Origin: Chloroflexota bacterium
GTDB taxonomy: Bacteria > Chloroflexota > Dehalococcoidia > DSTF01 > RBG-16-68-14
Length of the DNA stretch: 64,000 nt
NCBI GenBank assembly: GCA_003228685.1
Contig: QIFC01000029.1
Span: 1,759-65,758, forward strand
Direction: 5' to 3'
The notes below the pieces were generated by a model that was given only the letters and a program-made list of their open reading frames with translations, did no database searches and was not told the origin of the DNA. Position 1 is the stretch's first letter. Every line of letters begins with the position of its first letter. The position numbers and the translations under genes were made by a program. Positions 3,156 to 50,403 of the stretch are shown in pieces.

Positions 3156-4169
3156 ATGGCAGCCAAGATCGGCATCAACGGGTTTGGGCGAATTGGACGG
3201 CAAGTATTCAAGGCGATCCGGGATCGGCACGGCGACAGCTTGGAAGTCGTCGCGATCAACGATCTCGTCGACGCCAAGACCAACGCTCATCTTTTGAAGT
3301 ACGACTCCAACTACGGCCGCTTCAATGGCACAGTTGAACCGGCGGACAGCGCTATCGTCGTCGACGGAACGACGATCCCGACCTTCGCGGAGCGCGACCC
3401 GGGCGAGATCCCCTGGGGGGACGCCGGCGTGGAGCTGGTCATCGAATCCACCGGCCTCTTCACAGACGCCAACCTCGCCCGCGGCCACCTGGGTGATACG
3501 GTGAAAAAGGTGATCATCTCCGCCCCAGCCAAGAACGAAGATATCACCGTCGTTCAGGGAGTGAACGCGGACCAGTACGACCCGGCCAGCCACCACGTCA
3601 TCTCGAATGCGTCCTGCACGACGAACGGCCTTGCGCCAGTCGTGAAGGTGCTGCTCGACAACTTCGGCATCGTGAAAGGGCAGATGACGACCGTCCACGC
3701 CTACACCAACACGCAGCGCGTGCTCGACGTGGCGCACAAGGACCTCCGCGAGGGCCGCGCCGCCGCCCTCAACATCATCCCGTTCACGACCGGCGCGGCG
3801 AAGGCGCTCAAGCTGGTCATACCCGAGATCGAAGGCAAGATCGACGGACTGGCGTACCGCGTCCCGACGCCGACGGTATCGATCGTGGAAGTCGTCTGCC
3901 TGACCGAGCAGGACACTACTCCCGAAAAGATCAACGACGCCATGCGCGACGCAGCATCGGAGCGGATGAAGGGCATCCTCGACGTGATCGACGACCCGGT
4001 CGTCAGCATGGACATGAAAGGTGACGAGCACTCGTCCATCGTCCACGCGCCCGTCACGAACGTCGTGGCAGGAAACCTCGTGAAGGTGGCAGCCTGGTAC
4101 GACAACGAGTGGGGCTACTCCTGCCGCACGGCAGACCTCTGCGCCCTGCTCGCCCGCAAGGGATGGTAG
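3156..4169 (+). CDS. gap: Type I glyceraldehyde-3-phosphate dehydrogenase
   Basis: KIGINGFGRIGRQVF Rossmann start, SNASCTTNGLAP active-site Cys motif, WYDNEWGYS C-terminus. Confidence 0.95.
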   Translation: MAAKIGINGFGRIGRQVFKAIRDRHGDSLEVVAINDLVDAKTNAHLLKYDSNYGRFNGTVEPADSAIVVDGTTIPTFAERDPGEIPWGDAGVELVIESTGLFTDANLARGHLGDTVKKVIISAPAKNEDITVVQGVNADQYDPASHHVISNASCTTNGLAPVVKVLLDNFGIVKGQMTTVHAYTNTQRVLDVAHKDLREGRAAALNIIPFTTGAAKALKLVIPEIEGKIDGLAYRVPTPTVSIVEVVCLTEQDTTPEKINDAMRDAASERMKGILDVIDDPVVSMDMKGDEHSSIVHAPVTNVVAGNLVKVAAWYDNEWGYSCRTADLCALLARKGW

Positions 4170-9816: not shown

Positions 9817-9852
9817 CAACGCTCCGCCCTGGAGCTAGCCTGCGAGTACATA

Positions 9853-9970
9853 CGACTAGTGCGGGAGCTGGGGATCCGCCACGGAGGCGGACGGCCCGGC
9901 TGAGAGGTCCCATCCGAGACGGGACGACCGCTAGACCTGATCTGGGTAATGCCAGCGAAGGGATCGACAA
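9853..9970 (+). promoter_or_regulatory. TPP (THI-box) riboswitch
   Basis: Contains the invariant elements GCUGAGAG (about 9898-9905) and ACCUGAUCUGGGUAAUGCCAGCGAAGGGA (about 9934-9962). It lies directly upstream of thiD. A possible promoter, TTGACA (9813-9818)-17 nt-TAGCCT, precedes it. Confidence 0.9.
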
Positions 9971-9978
9971 CTCCTGAC

Positions 9979-10004
9979 GCCGCCGGCAGCCCGGCGGCCG
10001 TTTT
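9979..10004 (+). terminator. Intrinsic terminator hairpin serving as the riboswitch expression platform
   Basis: GCCGCCGG (9979-9986), loop CAGC, CCGGCGGC (9991-9998), then CGTTTTC. It sits between the aptamer and the thiD start. Confidence 0.6.
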
Positions 10005-10073: not shown

Positions 10074-10952
10074 ATGAGCCGACGTGTGCCATCCGTCCTG
10101 ACGATCGCGGGCTCCGACTCCGGCGCGGGCGCCGGCATTCAGGCCGACCTCAAGACGTTCGCGGCCATGGGCGTCTTCGGCACGACCGCCATCACGGCCA
10201 TCACCGCCCAGAACACACTTGGCGTGCAGGATGTCCTGGCGTTGCCGCCGGAGTTGATCGCGGCGCAGATCGACGCCGTGGCGGGCGACATCGGCGCCGA
10301 CGTCGTGAAGACCGGCATGCTCGCGAACGTCGAGATCGTCGATGTCGTCGTCGCGAAGGTGACCGAGCACGCGCTCAGCCCGCTTGTCGTCGACCCGGTG
10401 ATGGTGTCGAGCAGCGGCGCCCGCCTCTTCGAGGACGACGCCGTGGACGCGATCCGGGAACGGCTCCTGCCGCTCGCGACGATCATCACGCCCAACCTGC
10501 GGGAGGCTGAAGTCCTGCTCGGACGCAAGCTGACTTCGTGGGAGGAGATCCGGGCCGGCGCGGAGGAGCTGGTCGCGATGGGCGCGGGCGCGGCGATTAT
10601 TAAGGGTGGCCACCCCGCAGTCGAAGGTAGCGAAGGCGCCGCGACCGACCTGCTCTACGACAGCGAGGGCCTGCGCGAGTACACCACCACCCGCATCGAC
10701 ACCAACAACACGCACGGCACCGGCTGCACGTTCGCGTCGGCGATCGCGGCGGCGCTGGCGCGCGGGACCAACCTGCGGGGGTCGGTCGCGATGGCGAAGG
10801 CCTACGTTACGAAGGCGCTCCAGAGCGCGTATCCAGTCGGCCAAGGGCACGGGCCCGTTCATCACTTCTTCAGGTTCTGGCAACCAGGCCTGTACGACAC
10901 TGCGCAAGTAGCAGCCCAACAGACAACGGCGCAGCAAGCAGCGGACAACTAG
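10074..10952 (+). CDS. thiD: Hydroxymethylpyrimidine/phosphomethylpyrimidine kinase
   Basis: LTIAGSDSGAGAGIQADLKTF and NTHGTGCTFASAIAA motifs. Downstream of the TPP riboswitch. Confidence 0.9.
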   Translation: MSRRVPSVLTIAGSDSGAGAGIQADLKTFAAMGVFGTTAITAITAQNTLGVQDVLALPPELIAAQIDAVAGDIGADVVKTGMLANVEIVDVVVAKVTEHALSPLVVDPVMVSSSGARLFEDDAVDAIRERLLPLATIITPNLREAEVLLGRKLTSWEEIRAGAEELVAMGAGAAIIKGGHPAVEGSEGAATDLLYDSEGLREYTTTRIDTNNTHGTGCTFASAIAAALARGTNLRGSVAMAKAYVTKALQSAYPVGQGHGPVHHFFRFWQPGLYDTAQVAAQQTTAQQAADN

Positions 10953-10955
10953 TAG

Positions 10956-12302
<1,347 letters not shown>

Positions 12303-12356
12303 GTGCGACCAACACCGCCGACTGAAGCCGGCGGCATAAGGACAGCAGAGAAGTAG

Positions 12357-12378
12357 GGACAGACGTTCAAGTCTGTCC
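12357..12378 (+). other. Perfect 8-bp stem hairpin at the left junction of the lower-GC island
   Basis: GGACAGAC-gttcaa-GTCTGTCC. It is preceded by a second hairpin, CCGCCG-actgaagc-CGGCGG (about 12314-12333). There is no U-tract, so it is not a canonical terminator. Confidence 0.3.
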
Positions 12379-12409
12379 AGCAAACGAAACGGAACGAAAG
12401 AAGCGTGCG

Positions 12410-13270
12410 GTGAGCATAGACATACTGGAAATCCTGGGGCTGCGGGGCTTCGATACGAATCGTCGCATTAAGCTTGTACGTCATCAAGACGCACGCTACG
12501 ACGTCCTTGACCTACAGCGGCACGGTTGGCTCGAAACATACCAAGCCTTCCAGGCACCGGGCGTTTTCGACAAGGTGGACTGCTTCATCTGCTTCGTAGG
12601 CGTAGGTGGTACGAGGGCACGGCTCGTGGGGATCTACGACGTCTTAGGGCGCAAGCCAGGCCATGAAGGGATATTGCCCGCAGGATGCCCCTTCCCAGAG
12701 GATTGGAAAGAGTCATACTACTACGAACTGCGCCGAGAGCCGGGCTTCGAAGACCTTGAGAATCGCGTTGTAATCGAGTGGGGTCGTGCGACCAGGGCTT
12801 GGCATCAGTGGCTAAAGAACAAGGAGGTCGCAAACAAGGAAGTCGTGGAAATCCTGTCAAGCGGCGCAATCCTTCCACCGTTTGACGACTACCTCGGGTT
12901 TACTCTGACTCACTCCGAACTCAAGGACGTATGCTCACAGCCCGATGTGAACGCAGAGTGGCGTGCGCGCCTGAGCGCTATTGCCGGCGTCTACCTCATA
13001 CTGGCGACAACGACAGGACAGCAATATGTCGGATCGGCAACTGGCGTCGAGGGAGTCTGGGGGCGGTGGACTGAATACGCCAAAAACGGACATGGCGGAA
13101 ACAAGCTGTTGAAGAAGCTCATCCAGAACGACGCTGCATATCCAGACGCCTTCAAATATTCGATCCTTCAGATTCTCCCGCCGACCTTTGCTCGAAGCGT
13201 TGTGTTGGATTCCGAACGCCTTTACAAGGAGAAGCTCGGCAGCCTCGCAACAGGCCTCAACGAGAATTGA
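12410..13270 (+). CDS. GIY-YIG nuclease-domain protein (unknown ~180-aa N-terminal domain, C-terminal GIY-YIG)
   Basis: C-terminal IAGVYLILATTTGQQYVGSATGVEGVWGRWTEY...YKEKLGS fits the GIY-(x10)-YVG core. GTG start. GC is clearly lower than in flanking thi genes (hand count 53% for 12421-12480 against 75% for a thiC line). Confidence 0.65.
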   Translation: MSIDILEILGLRGFDTNRRIKLVRHQDARYDVLDLQRHGWLETYQAFQAPGVFDKVDCFICFVGVGGTRARLVGIYDVLGRKPGHEGILPAGCPFPEDWKESYYYELRREPGFEDLENRVVIEWGRATRAWHQWLKNKEVANKEVVEILSSGAILPPFDDYLGFTLTHSELKDVCSQPDVNAEWRARLSAIAGVYLILATTTGQQYVGSATGVEGVWGRWTEYAKNGHGGNKLLKKLIQNDAAYPDAFKYSILQILPPTFARSVVLDSERLYKEKLGSLATGLNEN

Positions 13271-13271
13271 C

Positions 13272-13499
13272 ATGACCTTCCTCATCCGCAAACTGGCCGG
13301 AAGCTGGCGCTCCGCGACGCGGGCGCGGCTGCTCTACATCGTGATGGCGAGTGCCTTCTGCGGGCTCGCTGTGGTAGCGGCGGTGCGCGGCAGCGGTGGG
13401 GTCGCCAGCATCGCGGCGATCGTCGCGATCGTAACGCTGGGCGTGGCCGTCATCGCACCGCGGCTCTCCGCAGCAACGCGAGGGAGCAGAAACACCTAG
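13272..13499 (+). CDS. Possible small membrane protein (75 aa, two hydrophobic segments)
   Basis: ATG at 13272, immediately after the GIY-YIG stop. Hydrophobic stretches are LLYIVMASAFCGLAVVAAV and IAAIVAIVTLGVAVIA. This is a high-GC patch, so it could be a spurious ORF. Confidence 0.3.
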   Translation: MTFLIRKLAGSWRSATRARLLYIVMASAFCGLAVVAAVRGSGGVASIAAIVAIVTLGVAVIAPRLSAATRGSRNT

Positions 13500-13539
13500 C
13501 AGCTTCGCTAGAATGGAGTTGGGCGACGATTGGAGGTGA

Positions 13540-13962
13540 ATGGTTATGGTAAGAACATGGGCTGACGAGATGGCAGACTGTCAACAAGTAGTTTACCCCT
13601 TGCTGGAAGAACTGCGCGACGAGATTGGCTCCGATCTCAAATGGGAGTTCGTCCCCGAACTCGGATTCGAATTTGATGCTGTAGCTCTGGAACTCACCCG
13701 CGAGACCGGGCGATTGCGGGTGTTTGTGACATTCGAAGCTTGGGTCAACGCGTCAAGCGATCCAGGCGACATGCAAGACAGGCTCCGGCAGGTGGTGAAG
13801 AAGATCGGCACGACCAAGAATGCCGGCTATGTAATTACAAGCACCGGCGTGATCGAGAAGCCGCCCCGAGCTTCTACGCAGCAACTCCTCGACGACGCAG
13901 CAGCAATTGAAGCCGACGTTGAAACAGAGCGATTTCGGAAGTCGCTGAAGGCCCCAAGGTAG
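13540..13962 (+). CDS. Hypothetical protein (140 aa) in the antitoxin position upstream of the RelE/ParE-like gene
   Basis: GGAGG SD upstream and lower GC (53% hand count for 13561-13620). I recognise no family. Its stop lies 7 nt before the next start. Confidence 0.5.
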   Translation: MVMVRTWADEMADCQQVVYPLLEELRDEIGSDLKWEFVPELGFEFDAVALELTRETGRLRVFVTFEAWVNASSDPGDMQDRLRQVVKKIGTTKNAGYVITSTGVIEKPPRASTQQLLDDAAAIEADVETERFRKSLKAPR

Positions 13963-13968
13963 GACCTC

Positions 13969-14217
13969 GTGCTCTACATCCTCTTTCGCCCAGCAGCTGG
14001 CGTGCGCCTCATGAGCCTACCTGGGTGGAACCGCGAGAGAATTGCTGACGCGATCATGCTTCTGGCTGAATCGCCACGACCACGAAACGCTCGGAAAATA
14101 CCGGGAGGAGGATACTCGTTTGACATCTGGGTCGGGCAGACGCGCGTCCTGTATCGAATCATCCGCAATGATCGAGATAAGGAAGACATCGGCATCATCA
14201 TTCTACGAATTGCTTGA
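13969..14217 (+). CDS. RelE/ParE-superfamily toxin-like protein
   Basis: Pattern YILFRPAAGVRLMSLPGWNRERIADAIMLLAESPRPRNARKIPGGGYSFDIWVGQTRVLYRII...IGIIILRI. This matches the RelE/ParE layout (A..dL..L......i...i..L...P.p...k.l.....y.irvG.yRviY.i). The stop is 10 nt before the thiG ATG. Confidence 0.5.
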   Translation: MLYILFRPAAGVRLMSLPGWNRERIADAIMLLAESPRPRNARKIPGGGYSFDIWVGQTRVLYRIIRNDRDKEDIGIIILRIA

Positions 14218-14226
14218 GGACTTGAC

Positions 14227-15033
14227 ATGAACGACAACCTAGTCATAGCGGGCAAGGAGTTCAGCTCGCGCCTGATCCTGGGCACGGGCAAGTACGACAG
14301 CCCGGAGACCTGCCTGGCGGCGCTGGAGGCGTCCGGGACGGAGATCGTCACCGTCGCGATCCGGCGGCTCGACCTCGATAACCCGGACAAGCCGACTGAG
14401 CTGGACTACATCGATTGGAAGAAGTACACGATCCTGCCGAACACGGCCGGCAGCAAGACCGTCGAGGAGGCGCTGCTGACGGCCCGCCTCGGCCGCGAGC
14501 TGACCGGCTCAGAGTGGGTCAAGCTGGAGGTGATCCCCGACGCGAAGTACCTCCTGCCCGACCCCATCAGCACGCTGGAGGCGGCGCAGACGCTGATCGG
14601 CGAGGGCTTCACCGTGCTGCCTTACATCCACGCCGACCCCGTCCTCGCGGGCAGGCTGGAGGAGGCCGGCTGCGCCACGGTCATGCCGTTGGGCTCCGCG
14701 ATCGGCTCCGGCCAAGGGATCCTGACGCTGGACGAGGTGAAGATCATCGTAGAGGAGGCCCACGTGCCCGTCGTCGTCGACGCAGGCATCGGGGCGCCGT
14801 CCGACGCCGCGCTCGCGATGGAGATCGGTGCCGACGCCGTGTTGCTGAACACGGCCGTCGCGCTGTCCGAGGACCCGCCGAGCATGGCGGAGGCCATGAG
14901 GCAGGCGGTCGAGGCCGGACGCAAGGCCTATCTGGCCGGCCGCATTCCGAAGAAGGCGTACGCTTCCGCCAGCAGCCCGCTCGAAGGCGTTGTCCGCACG
15001 ACCGAGGGGCCACGCCGGATCCCGGTCTCGTAA
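14227..15033 (+). CDS. thiG: Thiazole synthase
   Basis: SRLILGTGKY, NTAG and GSAIGSGQG motifs. 268 aa, a typical length. Confidence 0.95.
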   Translation: MNDNLVIAGKEFSSRLILGTGKYDSPETCLAALEASGTEIVTVAIRRLDLDNPDKPTELDYIDWKKYTILPNTAGSKTVEEALLTARLGRELTGSEWVKLEVIPDAKYLLPDPISTLEAAQTLIGEGFTVLPYIHADPVLAGRLEEAGCATVMPLGSAIGSGQGILTLDEVKIIVEEAHVPVVVDAGIGAPSDAALAMEIGADAVLLNTAVALSEDPPSMAEAMRQAVEAGRKAYLAGRIPKKAYASASSPLEGVVRTTEGPRRIPVS

Positions 15034-18922: not shown

Positions 18923-19567
18923 TCAAAGAGCACTACCTCGCCCCTGCCGTTCGACTAGCTCTCTCGACGCCGATTGAGGGTCATCCGCGCCGCAGACGGC
19001 GCTGATGACGGCCACGGCGTCCGCCCCCGCCCGCACGACTTCCTCGATGTTGGACGCGTCGATGCCGCCGATGGCGACCACGGGCACGCTTACGGCCGCC
19101 TTCACCTCGCTCAGACGCTCAGGGCTCGCCGCGCGCGTGCGCTCGGGATCTTTCGATTTGGTTGGATAGATGCTCCCTATCGCAACGTAAGACGCGCCCG
19201 CGGACTCGGCTTCCAGCGCTTCGCTGACGTTGTTTGTTGAGGCGCCAACCATGAAGCCGGCCGGGGCGACACGGCACACCTCTTCCACGGGAGCATCGTC
19301 CTGCCCGAGATGCACACCATCCGCGCCCGCAGCCAGCGCCAGATCCGCGTGATCGTTCACGAACAGCAGCGCGCCGTGTTCCGCGCACAGCTCCCGGAGC
19401 GCCTGTACCTCTGCGAGTTGCGCTCGCTTCTCGCGGCGCTTGTCGCGCCACTGAAGCATCGACGCGCCGCCCTCCAATGCCTGCCTGGCGACCTGTAATA
19501 CGTCGCGTCCGAGGCACGCTTCCGGGTCGATGATGACGTAGAGTCCGCTGATCTTCGCGTCTGCCAT
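18923..19567 (-). CDS. thiE: Thiamine-phosphate synthase
   Basis: LYVIIDPE start and the GSIYPTKSK motif typical of true ThiE. AIGGI and GADAVAVISAV follow. Confidence 0.8.
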   Translation of the reverse strand: MADAKISGLYVIIDPEACLGRDVLQVARQALEGGASMLQWRDKRREKRAQLAEVQALRELCAEHGALLFVNDHADLALAAGADGVHLGQDDAPVEEVCRVAPAGFMVGASTNNVSEALEAESAGASYVAIGSIYPTKSKDPERTRAASPERLSEVKAAVSVPVVAIGGIDASNIEEVVRAGADAVAVISAVCGADDPQSASRELVERQGRGSAL

Positions 19568-41616: not shown

Positions 41617-43227
41617 ATGTTAGGCCCACGGATCACAGCCTTACGTGTTGACCAGCGGGTCGTGTTGGCATTGATCGTGCTCGCGGGGCTGGTCCTGAGG
41701 CTCATCCTTGCCTGGCAAGACATTGAGTCACTCGCGATCAGCGTTACCCCGGACGACACGTACTACTACCTCCAAGTTGCACGCACCATCGTCGAGGGCA
41801 ATGGCCCGTCGCTTGACGGTATCAACATTACGAACGGATTCCATCCGCTCTGGCTGGCCTTGCTTCTACCCTTCGCCAAGTTGGGCGACAGCGCGTTCGT
41901 TCACACGGCGACAACACTTGGTGCGATCATCGACACGGCAGCGATTGTGGCCCTCTGGTGGGCGCTGGCGCCGCTGACCAAGCGCGTGCTGGTCCGTGCG
42001 ATTGCTGTCTCGTTCTACGCCTTCAGCCCACCAATCATCTTCAGCGCGGCCAGCGGCATGGAGACCGGCCTGTCGCTCCTTCTGCTGATCCTGCTCTTCG
42101 GCTTGCTGCTCCGCTCGCGAGAGCGGGATCCGGCCGACTATGGCTATTGGGTACTCTTCGGCGTTGTCAGCGGCCTGGTGGTTCTGGCGAGAACGGACAG
42201 CGGGATCATTGTTGCGGTATTACTGCTGTTCATGGCCGTCCAGCGGGTTCGCGATCTGCGTCCAATCCTCCTCGCCGGCGCCTGCGCTGGGGCCGTCACG
42301 CTGCCGTGGTTCGTCTGGAACATCGCTACATTCGGCACGCCCGTCCAGGGAAGTGGAGAGGCGATGAGCCTCTGGCGGCACGGCGGCCTCTACCCCATGG
42401 GGACGGGATCGCTGAGCAATACTTTGTCCGCAAGCTGGAATCAACTCAGTTTCGCATTTCGTAACGAGGTCCCTAACACGTACTTCTTTTCGAAGCACTA
42501 CTTGACCGCCCTAGTAGGTGTATGGGCGGCAGGTACGCTCATTGCCGCCAAGCAGTCCGCCAATGCCAGGCTCGCGATCCAAAAGCATCTTTTCCTCTTA
42601 CTCGCGCCCGCGGTTGGTCTCGCCTTGCTAATCAGTTTCCATGCTGGCGTCCGCTGGTTTCTCCGCCCTTGGTATTTCGCCGTCGCGATACCTATTGTCT
42701 CGTTGTATCTGGCGTCGGGCCTGGACGTGATCCTGACCTGGCTGGCCGAGCAACGCCAGAGGGGGCGTCAATTACAGTATGTGGTGGTACCGATCTTGCT
42801 GGGCGTCATGATTACCACGATGTACGGCATGGCCGATAAGGGGATGGACAAATGGCGTCCAGGCTTCCAGCCCTGGGGCCCGGACATGCTCGCCGGTGCG
42901 CGCTGGATAAACGAAGAGACGCCGGAGGACACCACCGTGGCCGGTCTGAACGTCGGCTTCCTTTCATACTTTGGGCACCGGCCGACGATTAACCTAGACG
43001 GCGTGGTCAACGATGGCGCACTGGACGCACTCAGGAAGCGTGAACTACTCGCATACGTTCAGGCTCAGGGCCCTACCTACATCGTCGAATACGACCTCTA
43101 TCTCTTCAATTTCTATCGCGTTTTCTGGGGGGCAGACCTCCAACCGTATTTGCGATTGGAACAGGAGTTCAGAGATGCGGTCCAAGGCTTTCCTTACCGC
43201 GTATACTCTTTCGACTCTGACCAGTAG
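41617..43227 (+). CDS. GT-C fold integral membrane glycosyltransferase-like protein (ArnT/GT39-like)
   Basis: About 12 TM segments. The first periplasmic loop carries PDDTYYYLQVARTIVEG, a GT-C acidic motif. A C-terminal soluble domain follows. Confidence 0.55.
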   Translation: MLGPRITALRVDQRVVLALIVLAGLVLRLILAWQDIESLAISVTPDDTYYYLQVARTIVEGNGPSLDGINITNGFHPLWLALLLPFAKLGDSAFVHTATTLGAIIDTAAIVALWWALAPLTKRVLVRAIAVSFYAFSPPIIFSAASGMETGLSLLLLILLFGLLLRSRERDPADYGYWVLFGVVSGLVVLARTDSGIIVAVLLLFMAVQRVRDLRPILLAGACAGAVTLPWFVWNIATFGTPVQGSGEAMSLWRHGGLYPMGTGSLSNTLSASWNQLSFAFRNEVPNTYFFSKHYLTALVGVWAAGTLIAAKQSANARLAIQKHLFLLLAPAVGLALLISFHAGVRWFLRPWYFAVAIPIVSLYLASGLDVILTWLAEQRQRGRQLQYVVVPILLGVMITTMYGMADKGMDKWRPGFQPWGPDMLAGARWINEETPEDTTVAGLNVGFLSYFGHRPTINLDGVVNDGALDALRKRELLAYVQAQGPTYIVEYDLYLFNFYRVFWGADLQPYLRLEQEFRDAVQGFPYRVYSFDSDQ

Positions 43228-43378
43228 CGGTTTCGGCGTGTGTGATGATATCCACCAGTGTTCCCAGCCAGCGTTCCCAGCCAGCCACTCTTCTTGGTAG
43301 CAATGCTGTTGAATCGATCCCCTTGCTGAACTTCAGAAGCAGGCCTACACTTAAGCGATCAGTCTTGGAGGTGTATCG

Positions 43379-45055
43379 ATGCGCGTTGCCAAACTCTTGC
43401 TGAAGCCCCTCATACTCTTGGCCGCTGTCGTAGCAGGCTCTGTTGCTACGTCCTTGTTGGCGACCGATGTCAGGACCGTCGGTCTCTTCCTGAACGATAC
43501 AGCAGCATATGACGGCTATACGTTGTTCGCGCCCAATGATGGCAACACTTACCTCATCAATAACGACGGGCAAGCAGTCCACACCTGGGACTCCAGCGGT
43601 TGGAATGGCGTGACTCCTTATCTGCTGGATGACGGCAGCATCATTCAAGTCACAGCGTTTCCCAACGAGGGCATCCAGCGTCGTGCGTGGGACGGAACGG
43701 TCTTGTGGAGCTATCGTATCGCTGGAGCCCACCATGACATTGAAGTGTTGCCGAATGGCAACATCTTGATGATTGTGAACGAATTTAAGACCGCCGCCGA
43801 GGCGACACAAGCGGGCAGGGACCCTGCATCCCTCAATCCAGCCAGGTCGTTTCCTCTCATGATCGAAAAGATCATCGAAGTTGAGCCCGTGGGAGCGTCG
43901 GGCGGCAACATCGTGTGGGAGTGGAACGTGTGGGACCATCTAATCCAGGACTTTGATGCTTCGAAGGACAATTTCGGCAGCGTTGCTGACCATCCCGAAC
44001 TGGTGGACGTTAACTTCGGCGACCCGCCGTTTTTTGCTTTTAATGACGCGGACTGGCTGCACGCCAACGGCATCGACTACAATCCTGAGTTCGACCAGAT
44101 CATGGTTAGCGTCCGGCAATTCAATGAATTCTGGGTTATTGACCACAGCACATCGACGGAGACGGCGGCAAGCCACAGTGGCGGCAACAGTGGTAAGGGG
44201 GGTGACTTGCTCTATCGCTGGGGCGACCCCCAAGCGTATGACGCTGGAGACGAGAGCGACAAGATGCTATTCGCTCAACACGACGCCCAGTGGATCGTGC
44301 CCGGCCTGCCAGGGGCGGGTAACATCCTCGTCTTCAACAACGGAGTACGCCGCCCGAGCGGAAAATACTCCTCGGTCGACGAGCTGGTGCCGCCAGTCGA
44401 TGCGTTTGGTGACTACTCCCTGTCCCCTGGCGAGGCATACGGGCCGGCAGATCTCGCTTGGTCCTACTCGAGTCCCTCCGATTTCTACTCTTCGATACTC
44501 TCAGGCGCAAGCCGCCTCCCGAATGGAAACACGCTCATTGATGCCGGCGTCCAAGGGACGTTCTTTGAAGTGACGGTCGAGGGTGAGACGGTCTGGAAGT
44601 ACGTTAATCCGGTCACTGCAGCCGGGCCGCTGCGGCAGGGCGAGCCCCCTCCCGTGGCCATCGCTCCACCGAATCCCAACGCGGTGTTCAGGATTTATCG
44701 CTACCCGTTGGATTATCCGGCGTTCGAAGGGAGAGACTTGACCCCACAAGGCCTACTCGAACTTCCGAAACCAACACCAGTGATCACCGCGACGTCTACT
44801 GCCACTCCTACGGCGCCAGCAACGGCCACGCCAACGAGCACCCCTGTTCCAGCGGGAGTGCTGGGCGACGCTGACGGAGATGGCAGCGTTACAGCTATCG
44901 ATGCTGCGCTTCTCTTACAGTTTACCGCCGGCCTCTTGGCTGAACTTCCTGACCCGGTCAGAGCTGACATGAACGGCGATGGCTTGCTGAACGCGATCGA
45001 TGCCGCGCTCATCCTGCAGACCACGGCCGGATTGTTCGCAGCGACGCCGGCATAG
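43379..45055 (+). CDS. Secreted arylsulfotransferase (ASST)-like beta-propeller protein with Pro/Thr linker and C-terminal dockerin, paralog 1
   Basis: GGAGG SD and a signal anchor. Motifs HHDIEVLPNGNILM, GGNIVWEWNVWDHLIQDFD, WVIDHSTSTETAASHSGGNSGKGGDLLYRWGDPQAY and NGNTLIDAGVQGTFFEVT. The C-terminus GDADGDGSVTAIDAALLLQF...ADMNGDGLLNAIDAALILQ gives two dockerin Ca-loops. Confidence 0.6.
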   Translation: MRVAKLLLKPLILLAAVVAGSVATSLLATDVRTVGLFLNDTAAYDGYTLFAPNDGNTYLINNDGQAVHTWDSSGWNGVTPYLLDDGSIIQVTAFPNEGIQRRAWDGTVLWSYRIAGAHHDIEVLPNGNILMIVNEFKTAAEATQAGRDPASLNPARSFPLMIEKIIEVEPVGASGGNIVWEWNVWDHLIQDFDASKDNFGSVADHPELVDVNFGDPPFFAFNDADWLHANGIDYNPEFDQIMVSVRQFNEFWVIDHSTSTETAASHSGGNSGKGGDLLYRWGDPQAYDAGDESDKMLFAQHDAQWIVPGLPGAGNILVFNNGVRRPSGKYSSVDELVPPVDAFGDYSLSPGEAYGPADLAWSYSSPSDFYSSILSGASRLPNGNTLIDAGVQGTFFEVTVEGETVWKYVNPVTAAGPLRQGEPPPVAIAPPNPNAVFRIYRYPLDYPAFEGRDLTPQGLLELPKPTPVITATSTATPTAPATATPTSTPVPAGVLGDADGDGSVTAIDAALLLQFTAGLLAELPDPVRADMNGDGLLNAIDAALILQTTAGLFAATPA

Positions 45056-45245
45056 CTCTCTCCTCGGAGGAGTCATACTACATTCTGAACTGGCCGCCCC
45101 TTGCCAATATGTACCGAGATTATGTAAATTGGTTTGCTGAAACGAACGCTCGGCTACAGGCGTTTCTCTGTATAGGCCGCGGGCGTTCGTGGCCGGATGA
45201 GGGTCGTTTCGACGGTTCTCGCCTCGCTGGAAGGAGCGATGCTAC

Positions 45246-46955
45246 GTGATAAAGATACGCTGGATTCTCGTGATCATCGGATTTATGGCCCTCGCCATTG
45301 GCGCAACGTCGATGACAGGAGCCACCGCCGAGCAGACGGTCGGTCTGTTTCGGAACGACCCAGGCGCCTTCGACGGCTACACGCTGTTCGCACCGAACCG
45401 CTCGAACGTAACATATCTCATCGATAACGACGGCCAGATCGTGAACACTTGGACGAGTTCGTACGGGCCTGGGGTATCTGTCTACCTGAAGGAGAACGGC
45501 AATCTCATCCGCACCGCGAACATACGCGAACTCAATAACACGTTCGGAGCACTAGGCGGTGGCGGTGGGCGAATCGAAGAGTACGCATGGGACGGTACCC
45601 TCATCTGGGGCTACAACTACTCAGTCGGCCTAGAAGAGTATCTAGCAGACCCCGTCTTCCAGCACCACGACATCGCGGTCCTGCCGAACGGCAACGTGCT
45701 GATCCTCGCTTGGGAGTACAAGTCCGGCGCCCAGGCCATCGCAGCTGGCCGGGACCCAGCACTGATGGAGGACGGAGTCGTATTCCCGGAACACATCGTC
45801 GAGGTTGAGCCGGTAGGAGAGACGGGCGGCAACATCGTCTGGGAGTGGTACAGCTGGGACCACATGATCCAGGACTTCGACGAGACGCAACAGAACTTCG
45901 GCGTGGTCGGCGACCATCCAGAGCTGATCGACATCAACTACGGCAATACCATCGATGACTGGCAGCACGCAAACGCGCTCAACTACAACGAAGAGCTTGA
46001 CCAGATTATGATCAGCGTTCGCGCGTTCGACGAACTCTGGGTGATCGACCACAGTACCACGACGGAGGAAGCGGCGAGTCACAGCGGAGGCGACAGTGGC
46101 ATGGGCGGCGACTTGATCTACCGCTGGGGCAACCCCCAGGCCTACGACCGCGGGGACGAGAGCGACCGACAGTTCTTCATGCAGCACGACACACAATGGA
46201 TCGAACCCGGCCTGGACGGAGCGGGGAACATCCTCGTCTTCAACAACGGGCAGGAACGCGAGCCTGAAGAGTTCTCTACAGTCGTCGAAATTGTGCCGCC
46301 GGTCGACGCGTCCGGAAACTACATACTCGAGGACGGCGCGGCCTTCGGGCCTGCGGCTCCCACATGGAGCTATCAGGCTCCCAACCCCACGGACTTCTAC
46401 TCATCGTTCATCTCGGGAGCGCAGCGTCTGCCGAACGGCAATACGCTGATCGATGCCGGCGCCCAGGGCCACTTCTTTGAGGTCACTTCAGAGGGCGACA
46501 TCGTTTGGGACTACATAAGCCCGGTCACCGCAGATGGGCCGCTCGCGCAAGGCGTGGTTCCGGAGACTCGCGCCAACATCGTGTTCCGAGCGACGCGCTA
46601 TGGAAAGGATTACCCTGCCTTCGAAGGCAAGGACCTCGTACCCATGGGCGTCATCGAGCTACCGAAGCAGGAAGGAACGCCAGATCCGACCGACACACCG
46701 GAACCCACGGAGACGCCGGAGCCGACGGACACGCCGGAACCGACGGCAACGCCGGTGCCGGTCGTGGCGGGCGACGCGAACTGTGACGGTACGGTCAACG
46801 CGATCGACGCGACGCTTGTGCTGCAGTTGTCCGCGGGAGTCGTCTCTTCACTGGAGTGCGAAGGGAACGCGGACGTGAACGGCGACGGCGCAGTTACGGC
46901 TGTTGATGCCACGCTGATCTTGCAGTTCATCGCGGGCCTGCTTCCTGAGCTGTAA
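45246..46955 (+). CDS. Secreted ASST-like beta-propeller protein with PT/PE linker and C-terminal dockerin, paralog 2
   Basis: Same motif set as paralog 1 (HHDIAVLPNGNVLIL, GGNIVWEWYSWDHMIQDFD, WVIDHSTTTEEAASHSGG). Linker DPTDTPEPTETPEPTDTPEPTATP. Dockerin GDANCDGTVNAIDATLVLQL...ADVNGDGAVTAVDATLILQF. Confidence 0.6.
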   Translation: MIKIRWILVIIGFMALAIGATSMTGATAEQTVGLFRNDPGAFDGYTLFAPNRSNVTYLIDNDGQIVNTWTSSYGPGVSVYLKENGNLIRTANIRELNNTFGALGGGGGRIEEYAWDGTLIWGYNYSVGLEEYLADPVFQHHDIAVLPNGNVLILAWEYKSGAQAIAAGRDPALMEDGVVFPEHIVEVEPVGETGGNIVWEWYSWDHMIQDFDETQQNFGVVGDHPELIDINYGNTIDDWQHANALNYNEELDQIMISVRAFDELWVIDHSTTTEEAASHSGGDSGMGGDLIYRWGNPQAYDRGDESDRQFFMQHDTQWIEPGLDGAGNILVFNNGQEREPEEFSTVVEIVPPVDASGNYILEDGAAFGPAAPTWSYQAPNPTDFYSSFISGAQRLPNGNTLIDAGAQGHFFEVTSEGDIVWDYISPVTADGPLAQGVVPETRANIVFRATRYGKDYPAFEGKDLVPMGVIELPKQEGTPDPTDTPEPTETPEPTDTPEPTATPVPVVAGDANCDGTVNAIDATLVLQLSAGVVSSLECEGNADVNGDGAVTAVDATLILQFIAGLLPEL

Positions 46956-47166
46956 ACAGCTCCCGGAACGCGAGCGCCTCGCGGTACTCCGAAGGTTACG
47001 CCCATGGCCGGTGAGGCGTGCCTTCGCGCTATCGCTGGTAGGATCGGTGGCGGACTATGCTTCCCGATGAACCAGGATGTCGCATAGCGCGGGTACTGGC
47101 AGTGCAAGACTATGAGCAGTTCTGAATCTGCGTCTCCACGGTCAGAAAAGCGCTAGGGTGGTCAAA

Positions 47167-48687
47167 ATGAGTAGATCGCAGCAGACTCCGGTCACCGATC
47201 GTGTCGATTCTATCACGTCCAGGCTGGCTGAAGTCGTAAGACCGGTAGGCCGGCTTCTGGCAAGACAGCCTCTCCTCATACTAGGTCTGATCCTCGCGCT
47301 CACCTTCGGCATTTATGCCCAGGCGATCAACGACTGGTTCCAGACCGACGACTTCCTCCTCCTCAGAGGCGCAAAGGCCGTTCCGTTCCTGACCTACGTG
47401 CGGGAGGCTTTCGATTTTCGCGACTTTGAGCCCCTACGGCTCTTCGCATACCGGCCGCTGGCGTTCATCACGACCGATGTCCTCTACATCACCTTCGGTC
47501 TAGACCCGGCGCCGTATCATCTGCTCCAGATCGCCGCCCACATGCTCAACGTTGTGCTGGTCTGGCACATCGCTCGCCGCATGACGCGGTCGCTCCTGGT
47601 CGCTAACTTGGCCGCGCTCGTGTTCGCCATCCACCCGATCTACAGCCAGACTGTCATTTGGATCGCAGCCAACAACTCGCAGCTAGCCCTGACGGGCCAA
47701 CTGCTGTCATTCGTCGCGTTCTTGGAGTTCTCCAGGCGCAACTCGTGGCCATGGCTCGGAGCTTCGGTCGTCTTGTACGCAATCGCGATTCTCTTTCACC
47801 AAGAAGGCTTCCTGCTCCCGTTGGTGCTCGCGATCTACTGGTGGTTCGAGCGAGGAGAGCTATCTCGAGATTCGATCCGGTCCGCAACCGGCATCTTCGC
47901 GCCGTACGGCATTGTCCTCTTATCGTTCCTCGCTATCCAGTCGTTCAACGCCAACGAGTCGGGGTTTGACAGTTTCTTCAAGCCGGAGTTCGCTCTCGCC
48001 GAAACCTACGCGGGCGCGCTGGCGATGTCCGCGTTCCCCTTCTTGCTCGCCAAGATGCAATGGTTCCACGTGCTGGCGGCCGTCGTCGGTGTCCTCTCGG
48101 TTGGCTTCGCGTTCGTCGTCAACCCGCAGCGACGCTCTGTGATCATCGTCGCCGTCGTCTGGTACCACGTTTCGCTCCTGCTTACCTTGCTCTTCTACAC
48201 CAACCTCGTGGTTGCCGTCGTCCCGTTCATGGCTCGAAAGCTCTATCCTGCTGGGCCTGCTCTTGCGATCTTGATCGCCCTCGTCGCGGAGGCCTTCTGG
48301 ATCGTCGTCCGGCCGCGGCTGCCTGCTATGGCGCCGCAAGCGGCTCTCGCAATCGTCGTCGTCCTCTCGGCACTCGTGGTGTTTCGAACCGATGAGATGA
48401 TAGACGAATTCAACGTCTTGGCGGAGGATAGCCAGGCGTTCATTAACGGGTTGCAAGCCGAGCACCCGACGCTGGCGGAGGGTGACACGCTCTACGTAGC
48501 GAACGCACCGCTTGCGCTCGTCGTTTTCTGTACGCCCGGCGTCCTGTGTTACCTGGAGGACGCGATCTATATGTACTATGGCGAGGTCCGAGTGGAGCGC
48601 GTGTCCGTGGCCGAGCTGGATTCGCTCCAGCTGGGCGACGACGAACGCTCGTTCTGCTGGCTATGCGCGCCCGCCAGGTCTGACTAG
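47167..48687 (+). CDS. GT-C fold membrane protein, PMT_2/TMTC-like (DUF1736-type)
   Basis: FQTDDFLLL acidic loop motif, then YRPLAFITTDVLYITFGLDPAPYHLLQIAAHMLNVVLVWHI and FAIHPIYSQTV. This pattern is typical of bacterial TMTC-like O-mannosyltransferase homologs. ATG at 47167 (GTG at 47158 is possible). Confidence 0.55.
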   Translation: MSRSQQTPVTDRVDSITSRLAEVVRPVGRLLARQPLLILGLILALTFGIYAQAINDWFQTDDFLLLRGAKAVPFLTYVREAFDFRDFEPLRLFAYRPLAFITTDVLYITFGLDPAPYHLLQIAAHMLNVVLVWHIARRMTRSLLVANLAALVFAIHPIYSQTVIWIAANNSQLALTGQLLSFVAFLEFSRRNSWPWLGASVVLYAIAILFHQEGFLLPLVLAIYWWFERGELSRDSIRSATGIFAPYGIVLLSFLAIQSFNANESGFDSFFKPEFALAETYAGALAMSAFPFLLAKMQWFHVLAAVVGVLSVGFAFVVNPQRRSVIIVAVVWYHVSLLLTLLFYTNLVVAVVPFMARKLYPAGPALAILIALVAEAFWIVVRPRLPAMAPQAALAIVVVLSALVVFRTDEMIDEFNVLAEDSQAFINGLQAEHPTLAEGDTLYVANAPLALVVFCTPGVLCYLEDAIYMYYGEVRVERVSVAELDSLQLGDDERSFCWLCAPARSD

Positions 48688-48738
48688 GAAGGCGTGGTAA
48701 ACTCACGCGTACGCTCGGCCTACAGTTGGAGGTACTAC

Positions 48739-50403
48739 GTGCTTACGAGACGTCTCATACTTTTGGCTCTGTTCTTGGCCGGCATGGCTGTAAGCATGGT
48801 GGTATTTTCAGCTAGTGCCACGGAGCAGACTATGGGCCTGTTCCTCAACAACCCGGGCTCTTTCGACGGCTATACCCTGTTTGGAACGCTTGGCACCGAC
48901 ACCGCCTATCTGATTGACAATGATGGCAGGCTCGTTCACTCCTGGGACGAAATTAGCGGAAACGGCATCGAACTTCTAGAGGATGGCAGCCTGATCCGTG
49001 GCCCAAACCAAGAAACATTCGGAGCACCGCAAACGGTGACGCGGCTTGATTGGGATGGAACTGTCATGTGGGAGTTCGAGTACTCCGTTGCTGACAGGTC
49101 TCTTCATCATGACATTGAAGTTCTGCCCAACGGCAACGTGCTGATAGTCTCCTGGGAGATTTGGCCGTCCGCGGCCGCAATTGCGGCCGGCAGGAACCCC
49201 TCCTTGTTGGAAGAAGGCCAGCTTCGATCGTTCAGCCTTATTGAGGTCGAACCAACGGGATCCAGTGGCGGGAACATTGTCTGGGAATGGCGTTCTTGGG
49301 ATCACCTCGTACAGGACTTCGACCCGACCAAAGACAACTTTGGTGTCGTCGCCGAACACCCCGAACTCATCGACATCAATTTCATCGAGTTCACGCAGTC
49401 TCCTGGTGGACAAGCGACCTGGCATCGCGCAAACTCCGTCGACTATAACGAGGAACTCGACCAGATCATTGTGAGCATCCGCAACTTCAGCGAGATCTGG
49501 GTGATCGACCATAGCACGACGACCGAGGAAGCAGCGAGCCACACTGGGGGCGACAGCGGCAAGGGTGGGGACCTTCTCTACCGTTGGGGCAACCCGCAGG
49601 CGTACGGCGCCGGCGACCAGAATGACCAGCTGAGCTTCTCTCAACACGATGCCCAGTGGATCGAAGCTGGTCTGCCTGGCGAGGGCAACATCTTGATCTT
49701 CAACAACGGACGCGGCCGCACACCGGAGCCGTTCTCCACAGTCGACGAGATCGTGCCGCCGGTTGACGAGTCCGGCAACTACTCGCTCGACCCAGGCCAA
49801 GCCTACGGGCCCACGGCGCCCACGTGGAGTTATCAGGCCCCTAACGCGCCTGACTTCTATTCCTCTTTCGTCTCCTCAGCGCAGCGCCTGCCGAACGGCA
49901 ACACACTGATCAACGCCGGCGCCCAAGGCACCTTCTTTGAAGTCACGCCGTCTGGAGAGACGGTGTGGCGGTACGTTAACCCCGTGAAGCGATGCTGTGG
50001 CCCCATGACGCAAGGTGATCCAATACCACCACAGATTGGCGAGCTGGGAGGTGGGAATACGACCTTCCGAATACTCCGCTACGCTCCGGACTATCCTGGT
50101 CTCCAAGGCAGAGAATTGACCCCGCAGGGCGCGATCGAACTGCCGAAGCCTACGCCCGAGACCACTGTGACGCCAACGGAGCCGCCGACGCCCACGCCAG
50201 TAACCCTCATTCTGGTTGGGGACGCGAATTGCGACGGGGATGTCAACAGCATTGATGCCGCGCGAATTCTTCAGTACTCCGCCGGCCTTACCGATCTGCC
50301 GCCTTGCCCCTTAAACGCAGACGTGAACAACTCAGGCGACATCAGTAGCGTGGACGCCACGCTTGTCTTACAGGCTGTCGCCGGACTGATTAGGTTCGAC
50401 TGA
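48739..50403 (+). CDS. Secreted ASST-like beta-propeller protein with PT linker and C-terminal dockerin, paralog 3
   Basis: Same motif set (HHDIEVLPNGNVLIV, GGNIVWEWRSWDHLVQDFD, WVIDHSTTTEEAASHTGG). Dockerin GDANCDGDVNSIDAARILQY...ADVNNSGDISSVDATLVLQA. Start set at GTG 48739, six nt after GGAGG (the track start is 48694). Confidence 0.6.
   Translation: MLTRRLILLALFLAGMAVSMVVFSASATEQTMGLFLNNPGSFDGYTLFGTLGTDTAYLIDNDGRLVHSWDEISGNGIELLEDGSLIRGPNQETFGAPQTVTRLDWDGTVMWEFEYSVADRSLHHDIEVLPNGNVLIVSWEIWPSAAAIAAGRNPSLLEEGQLRSFSLIEVEPTGSSGGNIVWEWRSWDHLVQDFDPTKDNFGVVAEHPELIDINFIEFTQSPGGQATWHRANSVDYNEELDQIIVSIRNFSEIWVIDHSTTTEEAASHTGGDSGKGGDLLYRWGNPQAYGAGDQNDQLSFSQHDAQWIEAGLPGEGNILIFNNGRGRTPEPFSTVDEIVPPVDESGNYSLDPGQAYGPTAPTWSYQAPNAPDFYSSFVSSAQRLPNGNTLINAGAQGTFFEVTPSGETVWRYVNPVKRCCGPMTQGDPIPPQIGELGGGNTTFRILRYAPDYPGLQGRELTPQGAIELPKPTPETTVTPTEPPTPTPVTLILVGDANCDGDVNSIDAARILQYSAGLTDLPPCPLNADVNNSGDISSVDATLVLQAVAGLIRFD

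Follow-up and report, generated by a model that had tools for sequence, protein, structure and literature searches.

A probable layered accessory insert, with a single UzuA gene, between thiC and thiG of a Chloroflexota thiamine operon

How did four additional genes come to lie between thiC and thiG, and do they belong together? The question is raised by a 64,000-nucleotide stretch of DNA from an uncultured Chloroflexota bacterium (GenBank assembly GCA_003228685.1, contig QIFC01000029.1, positions 1,759 to 65,758; JGI metagenome contig Ga0212232_1000063), which is called the window here and in which all coordinates of the locus are counted. A sequence-only reading of this DNA, made without database searches, had described a four-gene insert of ~1.9 kb and explained it as a mobile cassette placed between two conserved genes, possibly stabilised by a toxin, or alternatively as a small defence-type module. 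We compared the window with loci of its relatives (referred to by L-numbers), the nearest of which are Chloroflexota metagenome-assembled genomes. The explanation that we favour, and that we consider probable including the mechanism proposed below, is a layered accessory insert in a thi operon headed by a thiamine pyrophosphate (TPP) riboswitch. It would consist of an old pair of genes encoding the orphan protein C140 and a RelE/ParE-like protein without its C-terminal tail, a small transmembrane (TM) open reading frame (ORF), and a single inserted gene, UzuA, belonging to the Uzume defence family. Of the mobile cassette, what stands is accessory DNA inside a conserved operon and the insertion of UzuA, as a junction empty of this gene was found in L096; what does not stand is a single cassette of four genes.

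The features of the locus are the following, GC3 being the G+C content at third codon positions:

9851–9980, + strand: TPP riboswitch (Rfam RF00059, 56.6 bits), head of the operon
9979–9998: terminator-like hairpin with a T-run, directly after the TPP riboswitch
10074–10952, co-directional: thiD
10968–12302, + strand: thiC (NCBIfam ThiC equivalogs, E ~1e-201; GC3 0.93), left flank of the slot
12303–12409, + strand: leader of UzuA, 107 nt with two hairpins, the final ~30 nt conserved with L083
12410–13270, + strand: UzuA, 286 aa, GTG start (PADLOC PDLC03973)
13272–13499, + strand: small TM ORF, 75 aa, GC-rich, two predicted transmembrane helices
13546–13962, + strand: C140, an orphan protein of 138 aa
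13969–14217, + strand: RelE/ParE-like gene, 82 aa, GTG start, without the C-terminal catalytic tail
14227–15033, + strand: thiG (PF05690 ThiG; GC3 0.93), right flank of the slot

The four ORFs between thiC and thiG could thus be confirmed, and the complete co-directional row reads thiD, thiC, four extra ORFs, thiG, thiE/tenI, thiS and thiO. For C140 the ATG at 13546 was preferred over that at 13540, as it fits better to the GGAGG box and to the homologues.

UzuA, its domains and its family

Judged by its profile match, the ORF at 12410–13270 is a full-length UzuA of the Uzume single-gene defence family. The PADLOC model PDLC03973 (UzuA) aligns amino acids 2–286 with profile positions 2–278 of 278 at E=1.4e-86 and a second UzuA model of PADLOC gives 5.6e-49, while Pfam returns a GIY-YIG match below threshold only. 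For this gene the alternative of a small defence-type module was therefore the right one, and no multi-gene defence system was detected at the locus by PADLOC. Uzume is included in PADLOC and DefenseFinder, has been listed as a single-gene GIY-YIG defence system (bioRxiv 10.1101/2024.10.26.620412) and is attributed to Millman et al. 2022 by a review (PMC12926258).

The 1440 homologues of UzuA are mostly ~283 aa long. In the window a beta-rich N-terminal domain (N-domain, aa 1–185) is followed by the GIY-YIG nuclease domain (aa 186–286), in agreement with the non-classical layout noticed before, in which the nuclease domain comes C-terminal to ~180 aa of other sequence. The GIY-YIG catalytic residues are intact: Y195, Y206, R219, H228, N231 and E269 are invariant in 36 diverse homologues and N284 is nearly invariant. 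The AlphaFold2 (AF2) model of the protein has a predicted local distance difference test score (pLDDT) of 88.5, and Foldseek assigned the C-terminal domain to I-TevI (1ln0) with a probability of 1.0. A search of the viral library matched the nuclease domain to phage Seg and intron endonucleases, so that its description as Seg-like was borne out for both fold and sequence. Pfam scans of 36 UzuA members revealed no family for the N-domain and no NUMOD, helix-turn-helix (HTH) or zinc-finger DNA-binding module.

The similarity to I-TevI and to the phage Seg and intron endonucleases, to which matches with TIGR01453 (E=8e-4) and the PADLOC HEase model (E=1.8e-4) can be added, would also suit a different role, namely that of a Seg/Mob-type homing endonuclease gene, free-standing and mainly selfish, which cuts empty intergenic sites in conserved operons and is copied into them by double-strand-break repair, with defence being secondary. 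The contexts of the family speak on both sides of this question. Homologues with 55–67% identity and without the TM ORF, C140 or the RelE-like gene are present in L087, L089, L091, L094, L138 and L139, the solo contexts being after thiO (L087), between URO-D genes (L089) and between moxR and DUF58 (L091–L093, L139). Several homologues are promoter-less, co-directional solo genes lying 48–107 nt past a housekeeping gene in unrelated conserved operons (thi, moxR-DUF58, URO-D methyltransferase cluster), as homing would predict, and the occupied and empty alleles, the lack of both a recombinase and a target-site duplication, and a mosaic UzuA allele older than its flanks, all described in the next section, point in the same direction. 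Other homologues, however, adjoin AbiEii (L094) or Mrr (L138), and in 39 viral contigs the commonest annotated neighbours of UzuA are repressors or regulators, with a few integrases and methyltransferases, as is the case for defence morons. I-TevI and Seg have the opposite domain order, and the NUMOD, HTH and zinc-finger modules are missing from UzuA. Moreover, UzuA is under strong purifying selection, with a ratio of non-synonymous to synonymous substitutions (dN/dS) of 0.10 between the window and L083 and catalytic residues invariant in the 36 aligned members of the 1440-member family, whereas fixed homing genes typically decay fast, and both PADLOC and bioRxiv 10.1101/2024.10.26.620412 list the family among the defence systems. 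We regard homing as the main role of UzuA as unlikely; the contexts fit a small mobile defence gene.

The loci of two Planctomycetota lineages (L091 4924–8486; L139 4291–7500) deserve mention on their own. Here UzuA lies between moxR (AAA_3) and DUF58 in an operon of the Bat type, accompanied by small ORFs of which one is aspartyl-protease-like, and this represents a second clade-specific residence within an operon.

Occupied and empty thiC/thiG junctions

The slot between thiC and thiG is occupied by UzuA in the window, L082 and L083 and is empty of it in L096, where the order is thiC, TM ORF, C140, RelE-like gene and thiG. The search for an empty site, which had been suggested as a check of the insertion, was thus successful for UzuA. 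The sequence-only reading had also held that conservation of all four genes at this position in distant relatives, with host-like composition, would count against an insertion; they are conserved in L083 (ThiC 92% and ThiG 88% identical to the window), at the same position and with the same low GC, but not in relatives with ThiC at 71–73%. In the latter the slot contains a HEPN_AbiU2 gene (L001 6509–7297) or a nitrilase/carbon-nitrogen hydrolase gene (L002 8331–9338). In L087 the gap between thiC and thiG is only ~10 nt and UzuA stands at the opposite end of the thi cluster, after thiO and beside a second TMP-TENI copy. Accessory and defence genes may land at the thiC/thiG junction repeatedly.

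L083–L086 share all four genes with the window, including their order and low GC, as would be expected if they formed one co-functional mobile cassette, be it a multi-gene defence system or a toxin-stabilised island. UzuA, however, is a solo gene in five or more other contexts, the pair of C140 and RelE-like gene is present without UzuA in L096, L097 and L098, and in L082 UzuA and the TM ORF are followed by a different gene. The histories of the genes differ as well, as can be seen from the proportion of synonymous differences (pS) between the window and L083, which is 0.69 for UzuA and 0.34–0.44 for its neighbours (0.34–0.42 for the pair). Together with the negative PADLOC result for a multi-gene system this makes a single cassette highly improbable.

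The divergence of UzuA was also evident from the synonymous substitution rate (dS) between the window and L083, which is 1.94 for UzuA and 0.54 for ThiC, 0.66 for ThiG, 0.45 for C140, 0.61 for the RelE-like gene and 0.66 for the TM ORF. Along the locus the sliding nucleotide identity to L083 is ~0.89 in thiC, drops abruptly at the stop codon of this gene to 0.57–0.76 for UzuA and the TM ORF, and is back at 0.88 from the start of C140. L082 is a more distant host (ThiC 83%) and yet has the closer UzuA (81%), and the comparison of the window with L082 is mosaic inside the gene, with a pS of 0.31–0.46 for codons 1–120 and of 0.76 for the nuclease domain. A divergence far beyond that of the flanks, the closeness to L082 and the mosaic gene together indicate that UzuA alleles have been exchanged by recombination at a fixed site, as far as sequence comparison can tell.

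The TM ORF has homologues in L083, L082, L095 and L096, the last of which adjoins or overlaps the stop of thiC. Like the other genes it is constrained, with a dN/dS of 0.49 against L083, and no family match was found in Pfam, PADLOC or NCBIfam.

With respect to the insertion itself, no recombinase, integrase, transposase or flanking tRNA was present among the ORFs and Pfam lists of the locus, and a search for direct repeats or a target-site duplication at the boundaries gave short matches at chance level only. The two hairpins that had been reported for the left junction are both there, one with a 6-bp stem (~12315–12334) and one with an 8-bp stem (12357–12378). We rejected them as terminators or attachment sites, as neither is followed by a T-run, the folding of the leader barely beats shuffled sequences (z=−1.75) and L083, the closest relative, does not share them (z=+0.75). 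The hairpin motif GTAGGGACAGA..TCTGTCC has one copy in the window (12353–12378), just upstream of UzuA, and one in L082 (7829–7854), just downstream of the TM ORF, with none in the other 135 loci, and it could be a marker of a module boundary. A REP-like (repetitive extragenic palindrome) element was dismissed, the GGGACAG..CTGTCC hairpin being single-copy in the window and in L082 and occurring nowhere else. A 12-nt near-repeat, GA[A/C]TTGACATGA, is located at 13264–13275 (UzuA stop/TM ORF start) and at 14219–14230 (RelE-like stop/thiG start); because it is not conserved in L083 it was discarded as an insertion repeat and is probably due to chance.

The base composition confirmed the hand-counted drop in GC, with 57.1% in the island vs 67.0% in thiD-thiC and 68.1% in thiG-thiO. 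The island is indeed a mosaic, as had been proposed from its GC-rich patch at 13272–13499: UzuA and its leader have 55.9%, the TM patch 68.9% and C140 together with the RelE-like gene 55.0%. GC3 is 0.57–0.64 in the three low-GC genes vs 0.78–0.93 in the thi genes. However, this step looks exaggerated, because the thi genes have the highest GC3 of all genes in the window (median of the window 0.76, sd 0.076). Across the 64 kb, a GC content as low as that of the island is reached by only 1.7% of equal-sized segments, one of which, near 42.3 kb, falls below it (0.561). Foreign composition as proof of a recent transfer was rejected, since the GC3 of the pair is low in all lineages (0.52–0.72 vs 0.82–0.95 for the thi genes) and yet the pair co-diverges with its flanks, and since other genes of the window have a GC3 of 0.64–0.67.

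That lowest stretch of 1.9 kb (0.561 near 42351) belongs to an array at 41617–50403, in which three tandem paralogues combining arylsulfotransferase (ASST) and dockerin (43379–45055, 45246–46955 and 48694–50403) alternate with unknown ORFs of 509–536 aa. Further observations concern genes related to the thi cluster. A second TMP-TENI (thiE-like) gene is encoded in the window at 18923–19567 on the − strand, downstream of an ABC-2 transporter pair, and this arrangement is shared with L083. ThiS is fused to a membrane domain of the DMT_YdcZ type (248 aa) in L001 (9208–9954), L002 (10804–11550) and L087 (8089–8835), while it is a stand-alone protein of 71 aa in the window. The Dehalococcoidia relative L087 has a c-di-AMP riboswitch (3216–3357, 93.9 bits) that precedes a small ORF and lies a few kb away from its thi cluster.

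The C140/RelE-like pair

C140 and the RelE-like gene occur together in every locus found, and six distinct sequence versions of the pair were recovered. In the window, L083, L096, L097 and L098 the pair sits inside the thiC/thiG junction, and in L095, the contig of which starts inside the TM ORF, it lies beside thiG. In L097 and L098, which lack UzuA and the TM ORF, the order is thiC, C140, RelE-like gene and thiG. The identity of C140 across the loci ranges from 83% down to 37% (L097 47%, L098 37%). Between the window and L083 the dS of the pair is 0.45–0.61 vs 0.54–0.66 for the flanks, and the dN/dS is 0.19 for C140 and 0.27 for the RelE-like gene. To judge from these comparisons, the pair is inherited vertically with the operon and is older than the UzuA insertion, because it is found in the thiC/thiG slot of every locus.

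C140 itself is rare. Only 10 relatives were found among 5.8e9 proteins and 17 by a profile search among 1.8e9 representatives, a metagenome scan with the alignment of the six C140 sequences returned one locus, and there was no match in Pfam, NCBIfam or PADLOC, by Foldseek against the PDB or in the plasmid search. Its AF2 model has a pLDDT of 74.

For the RelE-like protein the match to Pfam ParE_toxin is below the cut-off (E=0.021), with four of the six orthologues matching and a best value of 2e-4, and its profile gives E=0.036 against E. coli RelE in the PDB; the single sequence had no match in the PDB and a word-indexed homologue search with this ORF returned only itself. It shares 39% identity over 79 aa (pairwise E=2e-13) with an annotated RelE/ParE toxin of the Arthrobacter plasmid pNicSoilB8, which has a Phd/YefM partner. 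All six orthologues end right past the last beta-strand (..ILRIA*), where the Arthrobacter toxin goes on with GHRRDIYQH, and the C-terminal tail responsible for catalysis and toxicity (R81/Y87 in RelE; GHRxxxY in close relatives) is missing in each of them. The loss of this tail makes it probable that the toxin homologue of the pair is no classical mRNA interferase or gyrase poison. The suggestion that a toxin stabilises the cassette had to be abandoned, as the pair is found without UzuA in three loci (L096, L097, L098), co-diverges with its flanks and contains a tail-less toxin homologue.

As the pair is confined to the thiC/thiG junction in every locus, down to 37% C140 identity, one may ask whether it is, perhaps along with the TM ORF, a functional accessory of the thi operon, tuning for example expression between thiC and thiG, and not a selfish remnant. 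There are signs of translational coupling: the thiC stop overlaps the start of C140 in L098, the two genes of the pair are separated by 6 nt in the window and overlap by ATGA in L098, and the RelE-like stop lies 7–11 nt ahead of the thiG ATG in five of the six orthologous loci. In the window the TGA at 14215–14217 is followed by 9 nt and then by the ATG, and TGAGGA provides the GAGGA box; the overlap with the Shine-Dalgarno sequence claimed earlier was therefore correct, while the distance is 9 and not 10 nt. An accessory role would also account for co-divergence with the flanks under purifying selection and for a RelE-like protein that is conserved despite the loss of its toxin tail. However, comparably or more distant Chloroflexota do without the pair, their slot being empty or taken by AbiU2 or a nitrilase, the low GC3 of the pair sets it apart from the thi genes in every lineage, and no function of the RelE/ParE fold linked to thiamine is known to us. 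We consider this role decidedly unlikely and prefer a disarmed descendant of a toxin-antitoxin module within a layered insert.

Expression, proposed mechanism and comparison with known systems

A TPP riboswitch upstream of thiD is also present in L083 (52 bits) and L097 (46 bits), and no second TPP element was found before thiG in the window, L083 or L097. Because of this single riboswitch at the head of the operon and as no sigma-70-like promoter was detected on the + strand of the island, the inserted genes probably rely on read-through for their expression and are repressed by ample thiamine.

We propose the following series of events. Comparison of the loci shows that the C140 and RelE/ParE-like genes have been at the thiC/thiG junction since before the clade diversified and have been passed on vertically; they may descend from a type II toxin-antitoxin module that was disarmed by the loss of its tail and is now fixed in the operon. 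As a second layer, the two-helix membrane ORF comes behind thiC in a subclade. The third layer, likewise shown by comparison, is a promoter-less single UzuA inserted between thiC and the TM ORF, the alleles of which were later exchanged by recombination. Read-through from the thi operon would supply the UzuA transcript. The N-domain of the protein might recognise some trait of the DNA of invading phages, perhaps a modified base, and the GIY-YIG domain of I-TevI type would then cleave this DNA as a type IV restriction enzyme does. Its role as an anti-phage nuclease is suggested by family membership.

Several points weigh against this model. The mechanism of Uzume is given as unknown in a 2026 review (PMC12926258), and none was found in the literature that we searched. 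Foldseek hits of the N-domain were weak (PD-T4-3/CMoRE, YTH and ASCH; E 0.04–1.6, TM-scores 0.2–0.4) and its sequence profile had no match in the PDB; because of these weak fold matches and the lack of a sequence match in the PDB and Pfam, a reader of modified bases is just a lead and not a finding. The promoter scan may miss promoters of Chloroflexota. The RelE/ParE assignment combines sub-threshold profile scores with one BLAST match at 39% identity, no antitoxin DNA-binding domain is recognisable in C140, and purifying selection on both genes of the pair fits better to a retained function than to a decaying addiction module.

A more far-reaching and in our opinion quite unlikely idea is that Uzume genes are domesticated but still mobile homing-type nucleases, which would colonise operon slots (thiC/thiG in Chloroflexota, moxR/DUF58 in Planctomycetota) via break-induced recombination and would exert their anti-phage effect by the same cleavage, and that the disarmed pair of C140 and tail-less RelE was co-opted in the thi operon.

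The layered insert does not overturn current views, and its main gene is a further member of a known defence family. It does present a catalogued, mechanistically uncharacterised Uzume gene in a new setting, as a promoter-less passenger of housekeeping operons that is here probably under the control of a thiamine riboswitch. The occupied and empty junctions are a concrete pair of substrates with which it could be distinguished whether UzuA is a homing nuclease or a restriction enzyme. In addition, C140 is a tiny orphan family whose constant neighbour at the thiC/thiG junction is a RelE/ParE-like protein without its tail; the two are a candidate for the domestication of a toxin module.

Among the known systems Uzume is the one that UzuA resembles in its full length, with an HMM match over the whole profile, a size of ~280 aa, a solo gene and a C-terminal GIY-YIG domain with an intact catalytic set. 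The difference lies in the location within a riboswitch-headed biosynthetic operon of Chloroflexota and not in a defence island. CMoRE has shown that a GIY-YIG domain combined with a sensor domain can act as a type IV restriction enzyme dependent on 5-hydroxymethylcytosine (5hmC; PMC12923530; PDB 9U75, 9U7U). CMoRE/PD-T4-3 and UzuA both unite a GIY-YIG nuclease in one polypeptide with a non-catalytic domain, a sensor in CMoRE and a possible sensor in UzuA, with weak Foldseek similarity (E=0.04–0.2), but the nuclease of CMoRE is N-terminal and that of UzuA C-terminal, and they are not similar in sequence, the PD-T4-3 models of PADLOC having given no match. Seg and I-TevI have the same nuclease fold and are the closest sequence relatives of the nuclease domain of UzuA, and they share with it a gene wedged between conserved genes for which an empty allele exists. 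In contrast to UzuA, they carry the catalytic domain at the N-terminus, ahead of a DNA-binding module; in UzuA the order is reversed, the other domain is unrelated and beta-rich, and there is strong long-term purifying selection. The pair, finally, is similar to type II RelBE/ParDE modules in having two close or overlapping genes with the smaller protein, here of putative RelE/ParE fold, encoded downstream, at 39% identity to an annotated toxin. It differs from them in its tail-less toxin homologue, in which the equivalents of RelE K52/K54 are S/D (manual alignment), in an upstream partner that is an orphan of 138 aa without similarity to Phd, RelB or ParD, and in being chromosomal, embedded in an operon and vertically inherited.

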